From: Candidatus Brockarchaeota archaeon
GTDB taxonomy: Archaea > Thermoproteota > EX4484-205 > JAAOZO01
Direction of reading: 5' to 3'
Length of the DNA: 64,000 bases
Assembly (NCBI GenBank): GCA_017601145.1
Contig: JAFNIV010000006.1
Location: 479 to 64,478, forward strand
Positions 6,956 to 40,170 of the stretch are shown in pieces. How positions within the stretch are numbered: the first letter of the stretch is position 1; each line of letters starts with the position of its first letter. A program made the position numbers and the translations under genes. Below the pieces are notes generated by a model. That model had not been told where the DNA came from. It worked only from the letters and a program-made list of their open reading frames with translations, and did not search any database.

Positions 6956-7543
6956 CTACGAACAACTAAAGAAGCTACAAAGTATTTTCTCCAAGTAAGC
7001 TAGTAAAGAAAGAGAACTTTTAAAACTTGACTTTAAATTTATTAAAGGGTTAGTAAAGTACTCAAGCTCTATCGAAATCGTAGGTTCCTTAATTTGTAAC
7101 TCTGGAGCACCATACAAGCCTGGACCTTCTTTTGAATTATAGATGTAGCTCACTTCAAGTCTTTGCACATCAATTGCTTTGATTTTTTTAAATAGTTCTT
7201 CATTTGTATTCAAAAGTTCTTCTAAATTCTTAAGTTCAGCATTGTTTACTATAAACTTCGCTTTTTTACCCGACAAAAAAGAACTTTTAAGTTCGAGAGA
7301 TAAAAAGCCACCAAAGCTAAATTTAAGCTCCTTTTCTAGTTTTGTGAGTCTTACAAGAAGTATCGAAACTTTAAAAGGAGAATCTCTTATGTTCCTTAAA
7401 GTTAAAAAAACATGGTCAAGGTCCGTTGTTGATTTAAGCTTTAGGGAATAGTATTGACCACATGTATCAACTTCTCCAATTAGTTCTTGAAGTTGTGCTA
7501 ATTCTTTAGGAAAACTCATTATATTCAAGCATTTAAAACTCAT
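6956..7543 (-). CDS. Hypothetical protein
   Basis: 195-aa ORF, Lys/Leu/Ser-rich, no recognisable motif. An alternative start exists at MSFPKEL (7519). Confidence 0.4.
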   Translation of the reverse strand: MSFKCLNIMSFPKELAQLQELIGEVDTCGQYYSLKLKSTTDLDHVFLTLRNIRDSPFKVSILLVRLTKLEKELKFSFGGFLSLELKSSFLSGKKAKFIVNNAELKNLEELLNTNEELFKKIKAIDVQRLEVSYIYNSKEGPGLYGAPELQIKEPTISIELEYFTNPLINLKSSFKSSLSLLAYLEKILCSFFSCS

Positions 7544-34123: not shown

Positions 34124-36382
34124 TTATGAAGAACTCCATGTAGATTCAGCTTCTACTGCTAGAGAAAGCAATCCAAGACGTGTGCTCTTCTCAAGTTTGT
34201 TTATGTCAGCAGTATAGATACCATTAGATGTTAGTATGGTTAACCTGTTACTTTGGACAACTATTGCATTCGGCATAACTATTTCTCTTCTTATAACTCC
34301 ATTCTCATCTTCAAATATAACAACTATGTTTGCACTTCTTCTACCACCAATTGGAAGAAGCCGAACTATCCTTTTAATGCTATTCACATTGTACTCCTTA
34401 GTTAAGTAATTAGAAATCGCTTCTTTGCTTTCCTTATCTAACATGTTGTAGTCCTCTATAACACCAAGTTCATTTCCTCTCTCATCATAAAAAATGATCA
34501 TTTTAGGATATGAAATTGGAAAAGGTAACCTAACTTTAATATTGTTTAGAGTGTAGCCTTCCTTGGTAGATACTTGAAGTAGAGAGTTCTCGTAACGTAT
34601 TGTTATACTGCTAGGATCTATCAAGTTTATATAGTTTCCATTTTCTACGATTGTTCTTTCTTTTAATAAACCCTTTAATTCATTTATAATTGTTCCATCT
34701 CGCACTTCTATTATTCTATTAATGTAGTTCGTTAGGCTAGGACGATGCGAAATCAAAATTATTGTTGAACTTGGGAGATAACTTAGTATCCCTTTAATTA
34801 TCTTTTCTTCTATATCAACAGCGACATTCGACGTAGATTCGTCTAAGAACAACACTTGCGGTCTTCTAACTAGTGCCCTAGCAATGCAAACCATCTGTTT
34901 TTGTCCTCCAGAAAGTCTTCTTCCAGCTTCACCAACATCAGTGTCGTAAGCTAGTTGAAAACCCATAATGAATTCGTGAGCACAGCTTATCTTTGAAGCA
35001 ATTAGTACCTCTATAGGTGAAACATTTTTTAGTCCGTGAACTATGTTTAGAGCTATAGAACCTGGAAGAAGTAAAGGCTCTTGTGAAACCATAACGACTT
35101 GACTCCTAAAAGAATTTAATTTTATCTTACGTAAGTCAACGTCATCATAAAGAATTCTTCCTTCATCTGGATCATATAACCTAGTGAGCAGTCTTACTAG
35201 GGTTGTTTTTCCAGAACCATTAGGTCCAACTATACCAACTACTTCAGCAGGCTTAATTTCAAACGAAACACCCTTTAATACTGGTTTATCAGAGTAGGCA
35301 AAGAAAACATCTTCTACCTTTATTTTACCACCTATTTTTATGTCAACAGCATCTGGAGCTTCCTTTACAGAAGGCTCTACGTTTAAAACCTCGAGAATCT
35401 TCTCATAGGCTGTTTCAGCTTGAACATAAAGCGATGTTATTTGGCTTAAACTACGAATCGGTGTATAAACTTGACTCACATACCCTAAGAACGCAACTAT
35501 AGTTCCTATAGTTGTTTCCCCACTTAGTACCATGAAACCTCCAAAAAGCATAATTAGTGCTGAGGCCAAGGTTAATGAGAAGTTCATAGCAGGAAAGTAC
35601 TCTACGTTTACTTTAGCTAGGTTTATCTGTGCATCGTATATATCCTTAGCATACTTATAGAATCTTCTATTTTCTATGTCTTCGATACCAAGCACTTTTA
35701 CGAGAACTATTGATGACACTACAGACGTTACATAAGACATAAAGTTAGAAGTGACTTTCCATACTCTAAGGAAGGCAAAACGAACTTTCTTTTGATAGAG
35801 CCATGTTCCAACTAGTATTACTGGTATAGGAATCAGAGTAGCTAGAGCAAGTTTAAAGTTCATAGCGAATATTATTATCAAAGTCCCTCCAAGCATTAAT
35901 ATGTTCACCATAACTGATTGAAGCCCATCTATGAGAAAAGACTGGATTTGTCTCACGTAAGTGAAGATTTTTGCTACAAGATCACCAGTTTGACTTTGGT
36001 CATAGAAATCTAAGCCAAGAGCCATCATATGTGTATACAAACGCTTTTGGAGATCAAGTACAACTCGATTATGAAGAACCTCAACTATGTAACCACCTGA
36101 AGCAGACATTACAACATTCATAGCGTAAAGTCCTACTAACAAGGCTACTAACTTTATTAAGAGGTCAACATGTTGCATTGGAACTAAAACCTGATCAGTT
36201 ATTACTTTACTTATATATGGAGGTGCTAAACCTATAGCAGTAGAAATTATTGAAATTATAAAATATAACGAAAAAAGTTTAAGATGCGGCTTCAGCAAAC
36301 TTAAGAGCTTTAACAAATTTGAACTTTTTTGAGGTTCCCTTCTTTCGTTCACCATTGGAAAAGGTGGCTTTTGTGCTTCCAT
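34124..36382 (-). CDS. ABC exporter half-transporter (TMD-NBD) with an extra ~190-aa C-terminal domain
   Basis: Six N-terminal TM helices, Walker A GPNGSGKTT, signature LSGGQKQ, Walker B VLFLDEST. The beta-rich tail after ..IEVRDGTII is possibly DUF1854-like. Confidence 0.85.
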   Translation of the reverse strand: MEAQKPPFPMVNERREPQKSSNLLKLLSLLKPHLKLFSLYFIISIISTAIGLAPPYISKVITDQVLVPMQHVDLLIKLVALLVGLYAMNVVMSASGGYIVEVLHNRVVLDLQKRLYTHMMALGLDFYDQSQTGDLVAKIFTYVRQIQSFLIDGLQSVMVNILMLGGTLIIIFAMNFKLALATLIPIPVILVGTWLYQKKVRFAFLRVWKVTSNFMSYVTSVVSSIVLVKVLGIEDIENRRFYKYAKDIYDAQINLAKVNVEYFPAMNFSLTLASALIMLFGGFMVLSGETTIGTIVAFLGYVSQVYTPIRSLSQITSLYVQAETAYEKILEVLNVEPSVKEAPDAVDIKIGGKIKVEDVFFAYSDKPVLKGVSFEIKPAEVVGIVGPNGSGKTTLVRLLTRLYDPDEGRILYDDVDLRKIKLNSFRSQVVMVSQEPLLLPGSIALNIVHGLKNVSPIEVLIASKISCAHEFIMGFQLAYDTDVGEAGRRLSGGQKQMVCIARALVRRPQVLFLDESTSNVAVDIEEKIIKGILSYLPSSTIILISHRPSLTNYINRIIEVRDGTIINELKGLLKERTIVENGNYINLIDPSSITIRYENSLLQVSTKEGYTLNNIKVRLPFPISYPKMIIFYDERGNELGVIEDYNMLDKESKEAISNYLTKEYNVNSIKRIVRLLPIGGRRSANIVVIFEDENGVIRREIVMPNAIVVQSNRLTILTSNGIYTADINKLEKSTRLGLLSLAVEAESTWSSS

Positions 36383-36564: not shown

Positions 36565-36820
36565 TTGCCTTCTGAGCAGTTTCAAAATAGAAAAAAAGTT
36601 TAAGTAGTGGTCTAACTCCCTTAACTCTTTGATGGAAGAAGAACTCTTACGCCCTCTCTGTTCTGGAAGCATGGCTTCCTATGAGGGCAGGTTTATGAAA
36701 TGCGAAGATAGAGACGTTGTAGCGGTATTGAACCTTCAGATGCGGGGAGAAGGGTTCACCCAAAGAGCCCTCGATGAAATAATCGAGAGGGAAGGGCTAA
36801 CTACTTAACTCAGAACCCTT
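36565..36820 (+). mobile_element. MITE-like GC-rich repeat, copy A, carrying a degenerate TnpB C-terminus-like frame (36632..36808, 58 codons)
   Basis: Near-identical to the reverse complement of 39883..40170. Its frame reads MEEELLRPLCSGSMASYEGRFMKCEDRDVVAVLNLQMRGEGF.., resembling the C..C..DRDxNAAxNIxxxG end of IS200/IS605 TnpB. It contains the hairpin CCCTCGAT-GAAATA-ATCGAG(A)GG. Confidence 0.55.
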
Positions 36821-37081
36821 CTGTAAAAAGTATAGTTTCAAGTAAGTGAAACTTTGTTGAGTCTAAGGGAAGTCTTATTTAAAGTAAAAGGAGATTTAGT
36901 TAGAAATGAATTTCCTTACCTTTCTTGCAGTGTAATGTGGAAGAATTTGAATGAGAGCTCCTTTGGTTTTTCATTTTCGTAGTTTTTTACTGCAATTGAA
37001 ATAACATTTTTGTTTTTAAGAGACCTTATCCTTGGTTTCAATGTTGCAATACTACTGTTAGATGTTAAACGTTTTTCTTCT

Positions 37082-38080
37082 TTAAACTTTTGGAACTTTT
37101 GTTACTTTTCCTGATTCCATAGAGCTATTTGCAGCTAAAGTTACTGCAAGGGTTTTTATAGCGTCTTCGTAATTTGACATTATCTTTGAATCATCATTGT
37201 TCTTTACAGCTTCTATGAAAGTTGAATCCTCTATTTCAAATATATTTGGTTCTCCTTTAATGTTTGATACCTCTTTCCCATTTTTTAGGAGTCTTAATGA
37301 ATGTTCCCATCCAGAAAATAATGCTGTTGTCTCATAAGCATAAACGCTAAGGAAGACTCCTCCACCTCCCCCATTGGAAGAACAAGAAGCAAACAAGTTT
37401 GCTATACCTCCATTTTCTAATTTCATGTTAACTACGCTTGCATCTTCTATATCATAACTTATGGGAACGTTCTTGTTCATTCCTTTAACTTTGTATGCCT
37501 GAACTTCTTTTATTTCACCGCACAAGAATCTAACCAAGTCAACAGTATGAGTTACTTGTTCATGAAACTGTCCACCACTTTTACTTTTTACTATCCACCA
37601 ATTTTCGTTTCTTGGACTTCCACCAATCCATCCTCCAAAACTTAGTATTGGTGTATCGCTCTCAAATTCTTTCTTTGCTAGTTTTACACTTTCTCTGTAC
37701 CTATTCATATAACCAGCAGCGTTTATTACCTTCTTTTTTTCCAGTTCCCTTAAAATTTTCTTTGCACTGTCTAACTTTAACTCTATCGGTTTTTCGATGA
37801 AGAATGGAAGTTCCTTTCTTATCGCAAGTATTTCATCTCCATGCGCAAATGGTGGAAGAAGAAAGTAAACGGCATCTAAAGTTGTCTTGCTTAGCATATC
37901 TTCAGCACTTTTAAATACTTTAGCATCTTGAGTTCCATAGGTTTTTGCTTTTGTTTCAGCTCTACTTATATCTATGTCGCAAAATGCTACTAGTTCGGCT
38001 GAAGAGTTTGTTGAAAGAGCTTTTAAGTGTGCTTCAGCGATATTTCCACATCCAACAATTCCAACTTTTACTTTATCCAT
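37082..38080 (-). CDS. Gfo/Idh/MocA-family oxidoreductase
   Basis: VGIVGCGNIAEAH Rossmann segment and an IEKPIE motif. 332 aa. Confidence 0.85.
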   Translation of the reverse strand: MDKVKVGIVGCGNIAEAHLKALSTNSSAELVAFCDIDISRAETKAKTYGTQDAKVFKSAEDMLSKTTLDAVYFLLPPFAHGDEILAIRKELPFFIEKPIELKLDSAKKILRELEKKKVINAAGYMNRYRESVKLAKKEFESDTPILSFGGWIGGSPRNENWWIVKSKSGGQFHEQVTHTVDLVRFLCGEIKEVQAYKVKGMNKNVPISYDIEDASVVNMKLENGGIANLFASCSSNGGGGGVFLSVYAYETTALFSGWEHSLRLLKNGKEVSNIKGEPNIFEIEDSTFIEAVKNNDDSKIMSNYEDAIKTLAVTLAANSSMESGKVTKVPKV

Positions 38081-38318
38081 TTTCCTCTACTTGCAGTAAG
38101 TAGAGTATTTAATCTTTTTTCAAGTTACTTTTACAATTTTTATGACTAAAAAAGTAAGAAGCACATACTTCCTAACAATATTTTCTGCTGCTAAATTCTT
38201 ATTAACAATAGAAAGTAAAATATGTTTAAAAAGTTCTTCAGCATGACTTAACTGCTCGCCTAAAGTTAGGGGTTTCTATTGAGGTGGTTTATGATAATCT
38301 TTATTCATTACTAAAAAT

Positions 38319-39053
38319 CTATTTTTCGTGTTTCTTTGGAACAAGTGAAAACCAAAAGTCTGTTTTTACTTCTTTCCAAATATTTATCATGCCATTGTAA
38401 AGACTCTCTAAGTATGTCTTGACAACTTCGTTATAACGTTCTATTATTGGGCCTGCGTTCTTTTCTTTAAACATTTTTTTAACTTCCTCTCTTTCAAAGT
38501 ACCAGTCAGAAATTTCCCATGCAAGTTTTTTATCCTTTTCATTCTCTATTGATAGTAGGCCCATTTTTGCTCTTTCTATCTCATCTTTTACTTCATCTAA
38601 GTTAAATACCGCTACTGGCCAAAAAACATGTGAAAAATAAGAAGAATACTCTACAACGTTCTCAATTCTAAGTTCAACTTTTTTCTTAAGTTCTTCATAA
38701 GTTTTTTGATCTTCTTTAGACCACTCCCACTTAAATTCGCTTTTCCTTAACTTTCGATCAAAGATAAAAACGTCATAAGATAGAAAGTTTAGTTCATGGA
38801 AAAACCTTTTTTGGTTGTCTCCTTCTGGTGGACCTGCTATTGAAGTTGCAAAAATTATTGGTAAATATTTTAGTTTAGTTCTCATAGGCCCAATGTCACT
38901 GTTTATGATAAACCATGGGTATCTTTTTCCAAAGATAGAAAGCCAAAGATATTTTTCTTTAAGTTTTGTTACAAGACTTTCTAGGTTATTCTTATCAAAA
39001 AGTAGTTCAACTACATATTCTGTCATTTTATGTGTACGAAACTTATAAAACAT
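38319..39053 (-). CDS. Hypothetical protein
   Basis: 244-aa ORF, Lys/Glu/Trp-rich, no motif recognised. Confidence 0.45.
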   Translation of the reverse strand: MFYKFRTHKMTEYVVELLFDKNNLESLVTKLKEKYLWLSIFGKRYPWFIINSDIGPMRTKLKYLPIIFATSIAGPPEGDNQKRFFHELNFLSYDVFIFDRKLRKSEFKWEWSKEDQKTYEELKKKVELRIENVVEYSSYFSHVFWPVAVFNLDEVKDEIERAKMGLLSIENEKDKKLAWEISDWYFEREEVKKMFKEKNAGPIIERYNEVVKTYLESLYNGMINIWKEVKTDFWFSLVPKKHEK

Positions 39054-39189
39054 GCGCTTAAAAATCTTCTAAAATCTAATCTCCAACGTCTTCAAAATTA
39101 AAGACTATAAGCTCTTCTGCAAATTACTGAAACTCTTGAACTCCAAAACATAAAACTTTTAAATTCATACTTTAAATTAAATATTTGAA

Positions 39190-39705
39190 TTGAGCGTAAT
39201 GCCTAAACCATTTATACTGTACGTGAGCAAGAGATTCCTCGACAGATCCTCTAAAACTTTTGGTTTGGGATTAATCGTTAGAAAACCATTAGTAGAAATG
39301 CTCAAGAGGATGAACGTCTCGTTTAAGGAACTTGATAGAGATGAGGCCAAAGCAGCTCTTGATAGGATTGCCGAAACAAGTAGCATAACGATTACAACTA
39401 GACAGCTTATAAAAAATTTAGCATTTGCGTTCTTCCTACCAACAAGCATTTTTATTGCTACTTTGAAAAAGGTGTTCTATAGGTCTGGAGTTGAAACTGA
39501 AGACAGCATAATACTCGAGTTCCTCGTAGAAATACCAAGAATGTTTAAGCCAACACTTTTCTATGATATGTGGCTAATCGTGCCAAAGACTGAAGTTGGA
39601 GAAACAAACACAAAACAACTGATTAAAACTAGTAGAAAAAACTGGAACCACGCCACTAACAGAAGAGGAGTGGGAAAATCTCCAACCAATTATAGAAAAA
39701 CTTAG
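39190..39705 (+). CDS. Hypothetical protein, apparently interrupted by a 1-nt frameshift (the coding signal continues in the +1 frame to 39772)
   Basis: 171-aa ORF. After the A6 run at 39636..39641 the +1 frame reads TGTTPLTEEEWENLQPIIEKLRGKLDVKGVTENLWKTLETKSP*. This looks more protein-like than the frame-0 tail NWNHATNRRGVGKSPTNYRKT*. Confidence 0.45.
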   Translation: MSVMPKPFILYVSKRFLDRSSKTFGLGLIVRKPLVEMLKRMNVSFKELDRDEAKAALDRIAETSSITITTRQLIKNLAFAFFLPTSIFIATLKKVFYRSGVETEDSIILEFLVEIPRMFKPTLFYDMWLIVPKTEVGETNTKQLIKTSRKNWNHATNRRGVGKSPTNYRKT

Positions 39706-39882
39706 GGGGAAGTTAGACGTAAAAGGTGTAACAGAAAACCTCTGGAAAACTCTTGAAACAAAGTCTCCTTAGTTACCGTTCTGTTAAGAGAAATCCTTTG
39801 TAAGTAAAACAGAAAAAAATACAATTGTTAGCGCTTCTTTGCTACTTTGTATTCAAAACAGTAAGGTAGATTTGAGCTTAAC

Positions 39883-40170
39883 AGTGAAACATAAGGGTTC
39901 TGAGTTAAGTAGAGATAGATGATGTTTCATTCCTACTCAACCCTTCCCCCTCGATTACTTCATCGAGGGCTCTTTGGGTGAACCCTTCTCCCCGCATCTG
40001 AAGGTTCAATACTGCTACAACGTCTCTATCTTTGCATTTCATTATCCTGCCCTCATAGGAAGCCATGCTTCCAGAACAGAGAGGGCGTAAGAGTTCTTCT
40101 TCTATCAAAGAGTTAAGGGAGTTAGACCACTACTTAAACATTTCTATTTTGAAACTGCTGAAGAGGCATC
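39883..40170 (-). mobile_element. MITE-like GC-rich repeat, copy B, inverted relative to copy A, with a TnpB C-terminus-like frame (39905..40108)
   Basis: Its reverse complement aligns to 36565..36820 with about 8 substitutions in the ORF-like part and a net 24-nt insertion near the 3' end (manual alignment). Confidence 0.55.

Follow-up and report, generated by a model that had tools for sequence, protein, structure and literature searches.

The window analysed here is a 64-kb stretch of contig JAFNIV010000006.1 from an assembly of a Candidatus Brockarchaeota archaeon (GCA_017601145.1). The stretch also forms part of contig JAVYNZ010000007.1 in a Thermoproteota metagenome-assembled genome (GCA_038734975.1). 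It contains two short G+C-rich repeats in inverted orientation, which bracket a segment of three genes. We call the repeats copies A and B (winA and winB), and the loci with which they were compared are labelled with L-numbers (L045, L062 etc.). An earlier reading, made from the sequence alone, had described the pair as units of the miniature inverted-repeat transposable element (MITE) type, derived from an IS200/IS605 transposon and carrying remnants of the TnpB C-terminus. Our comparison with related genomes points instead to mini-elements derived from an IS607-type transposon. The copies and their left junctions are:

36568-36818, + strand: copy A, mini-element of 251 nt, from the CC core of the left end to the right end ...CAGAACCC; delimited by the onset and stop of similarity to more than 100 family members
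40166-39895, - strand: copy B, mini-element of 272 nt, inverted and more complete than A; delimited by repeat search, BLASTN and family comparison
36565-36569, + strand: left junction of A, TTG + CC, in line with the W-Y-G that flanks family members ahead of their CC core; this is the TAM-like position (TAM, transposon-adjacent motif)
40165-40169, - strand: left junction of B, ATG + CC

A repeat search of the window finds inverted arms at 36594-36803 and 39934-40143 (210 nt, 95% complementary), together with two short flanking arms. In BLASTN, copies A and B share 217/231 identities and then a 23/24 block past an indel (E 5e-100), and they are about 95% identical overall. With copy A as query no third copy is found by BLASTN within the window, so the count there stays at two. 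The G+C content of the copies is 44% and 43%, compared with 34% window-wide. The near-identity, the inverted arrangement and the G+C-richness on an AT-rich background that the sequence-only reading had described are therefore all confirmed. Its boundaries (36565-36820 and 39883-40170) located both copies, but the ends had to be refined to the coordinates above.

Two indels separate the copies, a 3-nt difference in a run of A by the left end and a stretch of 24 nt of the last stem-loop that is absent from A. The latter is the net 24-nt indel near the 3' end that had been noted before. The ATG of copy A is ATA in copy B, which agrees with the earlier remark that one copy lacks its start codon.

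The parent element

The 67-aa frame of copy B matches 39 short or partial proteins in a large protein collection, many of them with PF07282 (TnpB/Cas12f zinc-ribbon, TNB). One match is a 118-aa partial 'transposase' with a typical TnpB C-terminus (...NSSKTCPLCSGS...KCEECNIILDRDVVAVLNLQMRG...). An alignment-based genome-wide scan found 80 loci across many thermophilic archaeal lineages, including Bathyarchaeia, Nitrososphaeria, Jordarchaeia, Methanomethylicia, Archaeoglobales and Desulfurococcaceae, and a scan of metagenomes with the conserved core added 58 further loci. At many loci the same C-terminus belongs to a full open reading frame (ORF) of 374-412 aa, which we take as a bona fide tnpB because it carries both PF01385 and PF07282. 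Degraded full-size copies of the family also exist, e.g. L013 and L074.

Profile searches with models of the left and right ends define a full-length class of 1.35-1.44 kb (~1.37 kb). It consists, in this order, of the left end, a MerR-type helix-turn-helix (HTH) ORF of 61-70 aa, tnpB (about 380-410 aa) and the right end. The left ~85 nt of the window unit correspond to conserved sequence that in full-length loci is found ~1.2 kb upstream of the common 3' part. From these left-end and right-end profile matches it follows that the window unit is the left end fused to the last ~170 nt of the element. The proposal that the units come from the 3' end of tnpB plus the transposon right end, as internally deleted and non-autonomous derivatives, is thus upheld by the PF07282 matches and by the full-length relatives. 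The suggested search for TnpB C-termini was equally productive, as related genomes contain full-length tnpB genes with a matching 3' end.

The HTH ORF (MEEELLRPSEVAKKFGISVKTLWKWQKKG...) between the left end and tnpB scores as HTH_17/MerR (PF12728/PF00376). At the same position a distant relative, L045, has a 215-aa protein with a MerR HTH and a Resolvase domain (PF00239), which by its domain content is an IS607 serine-recombinase TnpA. The mini-ORF is 46% identical to the N-terminal domain of the L045 TnpA, and to judge from the alignment the 61-70-aa HTH ORF is the remnant N-terminal domain of such a recombinase. The full recombinase was found only in L045.

In nearly all full-length members the HTH-only ORF takes the place of the serine-recombinase TnpA (e.g. 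L004:2055-2236, L008:2030-2236, L012:1260-1469), unlike the situation in typical IS607 elements. It may be a functional end-binding regulator or an inhibitor of transposition.

A near-identical sister assembly contains a copy with tnpB-type sequence (CTGCCCTCTC...) upstream of hairpin 1 (the first helix of the RNA scaffold described below) and with the long terminal loop of full-length elements; this copy is cut by the contig end. As far as its partial sequence goes, it is a plausible source of TnpB in this species.

Element ends and family assignment

Seen from the left, similarity between family members starts with a nearly invariant CC, preceded by G at position -1 in 41/44 distinct insertions, which gives W-Y-G|CC. 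On the right it stops at ...CAGAAC|CC, after which all copies diverge completely. The mini-element L062 (2931-3178) sits within an unrelated, divergent tnpB gene, and its flanks align gaplessly to the uninterrupted homologue L069 (2341-2419) when a single CC is kept; L069 is a 77%-identical homologue and not a true empty allele, and this was the only such comparison found. Among the fetched loci there was accordingly just this one homologous uninterrupted site and no true empty allele. In the closest other species with the UxaC-like neighbour of copy B (77% aa identity) the downstream gene order differs, the intergenic DNA has no homology and no empty site is seen.

The left and right ends are not inverted repeats, and the flanks of the copies show no target-site duplication. 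The same core dinucleotide, CC, is present at both junctions, and the right end reads ..AACCC in nearly all copies; crossover would take place at this dinucleotide. The absence of inverted repeats, the absence of target duplication and the use of a core dinucleotide are all published for IS607 (PMC6188088; bioRxiv 10.1101/2023.11.20.567912). Since these features are combined with a MerR-HTH/serine-recombinase lineage, we assign the parent to the IS607 type. The window copies descend from such an element and, from what they retain, are not autonomous members: instead of a serine-recombinase TnpA with a MerR-like HTH they have 8 codons of the HTH ORF, and of the downstream tnpB the last ~50-60 codons are left, with the RuvC I/II parts gone.

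The IS200/IS605 parentage proposed by the sequence-only reading is not supported. Neither a Y1/HUH TnpA nor subterminal hairpins with a 4-5-nt target at the left end were found; a Y1 transposase is linked to none of the ~140 loci, and the ends have no hairpins of the kind used in single-strand transposition. Against the IS200/IS605 expectation, the last bases of the flank motif are the CC core, which the right end also carries. The end motifs GTTAAGTAG / CTTAACTC had been considered as IS605-style TnpA hairpins, a candidate that was dropped after the serine-recombinase lineage was found; they may be putative TnpA binding sites. By analogy with the IS607-family CboIStron, W-Y-G-CC would be the TAM of the family TnpB.

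The earlier description as MITE-like or like the palindrome-associated transposable elements (PATEs) is right in the loose sense, as the same internally deleted, non-autonomous unit occurs at several unrelated sites. In the strict sense it does not hold, since terminal inverted repeats, target duplication and a Y1 lineage are all lacking.

The first bases past the right end are alike in several independent insertions (TTCTGT, TTATGT, TTCTCT and ATCTCC, at window 36819-36824 and 39889-39894 and in the right flanks of L144 and L148). They are similar to the bases with which the left end of the element itself begins (CC|TTCTGA, CC|TCTTCA), and the likeness may reflect a target preference of the recombinase for a pseudo-site. 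Because these bases are alike, the similarity between A and B seemingly extends 6 nt beyond the true end.

Origin of the mini-element by internal deletion

The features at the fusion point and the reading frames that result from it are:

36632-36657, + strand: start of the parental HTH ORF (8 codons, MEEELLRP), up to the deletion junction at the CCCTCT microhomology (36652-36657)
36599-36634, + strand: TATA-like box of the left end, TTTAAGTA (TTTAAATA in most full-length relatives), with the ATG of the parental HTH ORF 33 nt on, from the left-end alignment
36629-36808, + strand: frame of 59 aa in copy A
39905-40108, - strand: frame of 67 aa in copy B

Full-length elements have ATGGAAGAAGAACTCTTACGTCCCTCTGAGG at the start of the HTH ORF and ACCTGCCCTCTCTGTTC in the zinc ribbon of tnpB. 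CCCTCT is present twice in them, just behind codon 8 of the HTH ORF and a second time where the zinc ribbon has its first CxxC. Deletion between these two microhomologies took out about 95% of tnpB along with the greater part of the HTH ORF, and brought the left end and 8 codons next to the final ~170 nt of tnpB. The left end, start codon and 8 codons are joined in frame to the tnpB tail, which accounts for the existence of a short ORF. It is made up of M(E/I)EEELLRP from the HTH gene and LCSGS...DRDVVAVLNLQMRGEGF... from TnpB; the first Cys of CPLC was lost at the junction, and the second CxxC was removed by an 18-nt linker deletion common to both window copies. The short frames reported for each copy are thus present, as 59 and 67 aa, and the sequence upstream of them is stop-rich as described. 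By this make-up the short ORFs are by-products of the fusion. The TATA-like box is a putative promoter, which could give a near-leaderless transcript.

Spread and further derivatives

The left-end/tnpB deletion junction of copy A recurs in copies at other loci. An identical junction with different flanks is found in winA, winB, L142/L143, L145-L147 (the L054 site), L148 and L163. As the same junction is present at six or more distinct sites, the unit has moved in its deleted form.

The family shows at least four deletion architectures. Apart from the window type there are units of 225-248 bp at four or more sites, which retain hairpin 1 and the 3' scaffold along with the left end and have the DRD-coding linker deleted, a 267-bp unit (L049) with its junction 12 nt upstream of hairpin 1, and 349-bp units that keep the HTH ORF and the 3' scaffold without hairpin 1. 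The RNA helices are kept where the protein sense is destroyed, which favours an RNA over a peptide as the conserved product. An exact scan of JGI metagenomes for the mini-element junction gave 0 matches, as did a search for the scaffold core in viral contigs.

The flanks of some loci are mixed; L144 combines the left flank of L142 with the right flank of L148. Such loci (L144, L158, L163) arose either when copies at different places recombined or when the repeat led to a chimeric assembly.

A structured RNA at the right end

The part of the unit that is homologous to the tnpB 3' end plus right end has the position of an omega-RNA scaffold:

36651-36818, + strand: omega-RNA-type scaffold of A; hairpin 1 (36651-36688) is intact, the 18-nt linker and the distal part of the last stem-loop are deleted
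39895-40086, - strand: omega-RNA-type scaffold of B, which has every helix of the family and lacks the 18-nt linker
36819-36838, + strand: flank of A at the omega-RNA guide position; similarity stops after GAACCC, and the guide role is putative
39875-39894, - strand: flank of B at the omega-RNA guide position; similarity stops after GAACCC, and the guide role is putative

The conserved block starts within the zinc-ribbon codons and stops at GAACCC, where all copies diverge. To evaluate its structure we fitted six helices to an alignment of 60 family members and tallied the pairs, with 500 shuffles and slid versions of the helices as controls. Standard pairs are formed in 96.5% of the cells, compared with 89.3% in the shuffles and 29-58% in the slid controls. 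Pairs changed on both sides number 17 (10.7 in shuffles, 4-8 in slid controls) and compensated cells 160 (45 and 7-29, respectively). All five measures exceed 500/500 shuffles and all slid controls. The check for a structured-RNA signal that had been suggested earlier is therefore positive for the family.

Compensatory changes occur in four helices: the two parts of hairpin 1, the 5-bp CCCTC/GAGGG stem and the terminal helix of 10 bp. Two more, a GGGG/CCCC helix and a possible pairing of GGGTT with AACCC, do not vary, so that covariation neither supports nor refutes them. Long-range pairs proposed by RNAalifold (columns 4-5/93-94 and 14-16/82-84) were dropped, as they show no covariation and clash with the covarying outer stem of hairpin 1. 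Hairpin 1 lies inside the zinc-ribbon codons. As IS607 moves as double-stranded DNA, covarying stems inside a coding sequence are best explained by an RNA, i.e. the omega-RNA of TnpB. Both the location, overlapping the 3' end of tnpB and stopping at the element boundary, and the covariation-supported structure agree with this.

The sequence-only reading had described a conserved 8-bp hairpin in both copies. The perfect hairpin CCCTCGAT/ATCGAGGG is present only in copy B, whereas copy A reads ATCGAGAGGG, and the helix that is conserved and covaries in the family is the 5-bp CCCTC/GAGGG, in a register shifted by two relative to it. One of the substitutions between A and B falls in the CCCTC/GAGGG stem (U-A vs U-G) and another in its loop.

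Copy B (39895-40089) folds with a z of -3.3, and 0/200 shuffles fold as well. It looks competent for a guide-RNA role. In copy A only a mini version of the terminal helix is left after the 24-nt deletion, and the copy is probably decaying, since part of its last stem is lost. The earlier suggestion of omega-RNA-like folding hence stands for the family and for copy B, but not for copy A (z -1.3). The sequences at the guide positions of A and B have no meaningful second match within the window, and a tRNA scan found nothing.

At L158, at L159 (the copy at the 171-aa end) and at L160 (the copy at the oxidoreductase end) hairpin 1 is a hybrid of 5' GCCCTC and 3' CTGGGC, the 3' strand being that of the CAG/CTG variant of the family, and two pairs are broken. 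This looks like recombination, or mixing by the assembler, between different family members.

The enclosed segment and its orientation

Between the copies there are three genes, as the earlier reading had listed them, and the 3' ends of both copies point into them:

36819-39894, no strand: enclosed segment of 3.08 kb, which public assemblies show in either orientation with respect to its flanks
37082-38080, - strand: Gfo/Idh/MocA oxidoreductase
38319-39053, - strand: orphan ORF of 244/235 aa, no Pfam match
39190-39705, + strand: frameshifted ORF, 194 aa and intact in other assemblies

The frameshift is a 2-nt deletion at about 39628 of the window; other assemblies of the same population have two more T's and an intact 194-aa ORF. 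In a collection of 5.8 billion proteins the 244/235-aa ORF matches itself and one 76%-identical metagenome protein. The 235/244-aa protein was found on 19 contigs of one near-clonal population, with flanks 99.9-100% identical and 0-4 substitutions in the segment. The oxidoreductase is 91% identical in amino acids (85% in nucleotides) to L150:18646-19275, while the UxaC-like neighbour of that relative is only 77% identical; there the oxidoreductase gene lies 8 kb from the UxaC-like gene, on the opposite strand and with no mini-element near. The segment and its flanks have different histories.

We compared the outer joins of the segment at ten loci:

171/194-aa end joined to the UxaC-like gene: window, L161, L162, L165
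171/194-aa end joined to the ABC transporter: L158, L159, L160, L164, L166
171/194-aa end joined to a transaldolase gene: L163
Oxidoreductase end joined to the ABC transporter: window, L161, L162, L163
Oxidoreductase end joined to the UxaC-like gene: L159, L160
Oxidoreductase end joined to the Opp operon: L158

L159 and L160, which come from different assemblies, have the exact arrangement expected from flipping 36819-39894. Markers close to the left end go with the outer flank and the part close to the right end goes with the segment, which means that the exchange took place within the repeats, or else at the core of the right end.

These genomes are otherwise nearly identical, but their repeats are mosaics in which a few biallelic sites and an 18-nt indel appear in many combinations, and the contigs of L154, L155, L156, L164, L165 and L166 stop within or right at the mini-element. 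Contigs that stop at a repeat are the usual signature of a multi-copy repeat and call for caution with synteny across the mini-element. An assembler may also orient a segment between collapsed inverted repeats arbitrarily. For these three reasons (mosaic repeats, contig ends and arbitrary orientation) the two orientations are not a proof of inversion. The idea that the inverted copies mediate inversion is supported by both orientations in assemblies of the same population, but the ambiguity of assembly at the repeats leaves it undecided, and we give a real inversion polymorphism a roughly even chance. In either case there is no sign of a regulatory switch, as a flip does not change which end of the segment each copy points into.

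Interpretation and alternatives

We consider it quite probable that the repeats are non-autonomous mini-derivatives of a thermophilic-archaeal IS607-family transposon, which arose by deletion, spread as mini-elements and supply an omega-RNA to proteins acting in trans. The descent from a full-length element, the unit ends, the family RNA structure and the spread of the unit as such are direct results of the comparisons above, and the promoter, the RNA ends and the guide are putative. After the CCCTCT deletion the mini-element spread as such; it would have been mobilised as a double-stranded circle by a serine-recombinase TnpA in trans, with crossover at the CC dinucleotide beside a W-Y-G-CC target. 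Transcription from the left-end TATA-like promoter would run directly into the scaffold, and the RNA would take the adjoining ~20 nt of flank (36819-36838; 39894-39875) as its guide. A TnpB encoded by full-length elements could take up this RNA and cleave the site left empty, which would favour retention of the mini-element. Retention by cutting of the emptied site is an established model for IS605 and IS607 (PMC10055086; bioRxiv 10.1101/2023.11.20.567912), and Meers et al. state that PATEs 'often encode omega-RNAs' that need TnpB in trans (PMC10055086). As a side effect the inverted pair would be a recombination substrate that flips the 3-kb segment.

Several results weigh against this account. 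Neither tnpB nor tnpA was found in the 64-kb window. The fold of copy A is no better than its shuffles, and a derivative class (L094/L096) lacks hairpin 1. In Rfam, the whole window gives nothing at the gathering threshold, and the region gives chance-level matches only at E up to 10. Among 20 distinct mini-elements 6/20 variable sites are paired, compared with 78/195 columns (Fisher p 0.47), i.e. no significant depletion, and three paired sites are broken. Because of this lack of depletion the structural evidence rests on the family at large.

The alternative that survives best is that the copies are inert relics, dead fragments that are no longer mobilised or transcribed and no longer guide anything, serving only as dispersed homology for recombination. 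We regard it as a real possibility, though a less likely one. It would account for the shuffle-level fold of copy A, for the lack of measurable selection on structure among mini-element copies and for the absence of tnpB and tnpA from the window, and the way the outer joins of the segment vary by assembly is what recombination at repeats predicts. However, the junction at six or more sites means mobility after the deletion, copy B has every family helix and folds well below its shuffles, the scaffold was kept in several independent deletion derivatives, and the sister assembly contains a longer copy.

A stronger form of our account is tentative, and on balance we doubt it. The mini-elements would be selected 'guide-only hitchhikers', in which deletions have repeatedly put a promoter before the scaffold, exploiting TnpA and TnpB of full-length elements and driving flip-flop inversions. 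If this is true, units of 230-290 bp use the full-length proteins both for spread and for RNA-guided retention, and the same recombination-prone copies drive frequent inversions and other rearrangements in a natural population that is close to clonal.

The two copies and the three genes could also be one unit, a composite transposon or invertible cassette moved or switched by a serine recombinase. Serine recombinases can invert DNA lying between inverted sites, both orientations of the segment occur in assemblies, and the oxidoreductase is more similar to its relative than the UxaC-like neighbour is (91% vs 77%). The outer ends, however, are both left ends, so that no pair of left and right ends frames a unit, and the segment is known only here, with its 244-aa ORF limited to this population and one 76%-identical metagenome protein; for these reasons it is not a composite transposon in structure. 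The marker pattern fits exchange inside the repeats as well as at the right-end core, and a flip leaves the relation of promoter and gene unchanged. We judge this reading improbable.

Little more can be said for a structured RNA domesticated by the host, as a guide for a nuclease-dead TnpB-like regulator or as an antisense regulator of convergent flanking genes, to which we attach a similarly small probability. The scaffold is strongly conserved over many archaeal lineages, and transcription out of either copy would enter the enclosed genes from their 3' ends, in antisense, but the insertion sites differ by genome with unrelated flanks, no TnpB-like gene is adjacent, and within the window neither guide-position sequence has another target.

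That the frames of 58-74 aa are a real family of small zinc-ribbon-like peptides is very unlikely. They are annotated as 'zinc ribbon domain-containing protein', the frame is open in 19/20 distinct copies and pN/pS is 0.6 when summed over pairs. An open frame of 66 codons is, however, expected by chance at 3-5% divergence, and ATA replaces ATG in 7/20 copies while one copy is frameshifted; taken with the pN/pS value there is no sign of a protein under selection. The peptide is an accidental in-frame fusion of 8 HTH-ORF codons to a tnpB tail, it has lost the CPLC first Cys and, in both window copies, the second CxxC, and another mini-element class loses the DRD-coding part and keeps the RNA helices. 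Pfam and NCBIfam give no match for either window peptide. The earlier view that the frames are not a conserved small protein was thus correct.

Finally, independent decay in place of two full-length insertions, never mobile as mini-elements, can practically be dismissed in spite of the degraded full-size copies at L013 and L074, since the window copies share an identical junction and the same 18-nt linker deletion, and the occurrence of that junction at unrelated sites in other assemblies already contradicts it.

Relation to known systems

The family resembles IS607 elements that carry TnpB and omega-RNA, such as the Clostridium botulinum CboIStron (bioRxiv 10.1101/2023.11.20.567912) and the ISC1904 type (PMC6188088), in its MerR-HTH serine-recombinase TnpA lineage (L045). 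The downstream tnpB, the lack of terminal inverted repeats and of target duplication, and the same core dinucleotide at both junctions are further points of agreement, and so is a structured RNA that overlaps the 3' end of tnpB and stops at the right end. In CboIStron the TAM is TGGG and the scaffold ends in UCGG (TCGG) (bioRxiv 10.1101/2023.11.20.567912). A flank motif that resembles the right-end terminus with one position off is also found here, YG-CC vs AC-CC (position -1), with the difference that the core is CC and not GG. Unlike IS607 elements the window copies lack tnpA and tnpB, and the family TnpB is distant from characterised ones: the best plasmid match is 32% identical and ISDra2 TnpB is matched at E 4e-8. 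For some IS607 TnpBs an RNA of the RAGATH-18 type has been reported (PMC11061315); the family RNA is not of that type, since it has no Rfam match.

Like PATEs (Meers et al. 2023, PMC10055086), the window units are protein-less, keep the transposon ends and the guide-RNA region and would need TnpA and TnpB in trans. PATEs, however, descend from elements that have a Y1 transposase and palindromic hairpins at their ends and that transpose as single strands, while the window units come from the IS607 lineage. With classical prokaryotic MITEs they share the small size (250-270 bp), the multi-copy, non-coding and intergenic nature and mobilisation in trans, but not the terminal inverted repeats or the target-site duplication. 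A bracketed segment in both orientations, with exchange inside the repeats, is also what inversions between inverted insertion-sequence copies produce; the evidence here comes only from metagenome-assembled genomes, in which inverted repeats can be mis-resolved. Non-autonomous elements that bear an omega-RNA have already been described, and there is no new principle here.

The analysis accounts for a G+C-rich repeat that stands out in these Thermoproteota genomes, and for two ORFs annotated there, spuriously, as 'zinc ribbon'. For an archaeal IS607-type TnpB family that is widespread and only ~30% identical to characterised TnpBs, it also defines the ends, core dinucleotide, flank motif and RNA fold. 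The mini-elements would be natural cassettes of promoter plus guide RNA, which could inform the design of minimal omega-RNAs for thermostable TnpB editors. In metagenome-assembled genomes of this lineage the repeats are likely breakpoints, either biological or assembly-related.

Minor observations

In L164 and L166 (~7230-7330, the copy on the oxidoreductase side) the stretch from CCTCGAT to its inverted partner inside the mini-element is flipped (…GAGTCCTCGATTCTACTCAACCCTTCCCTCTCGATTATTTCATT…), which may be a small hairpin-mediated event or an assembly artefact.

The ABC exporter that adjoins copy A (34124-36382, - strand) has a C-terminal DUF1854 domain fused to its transmembrane and ATPase parts.

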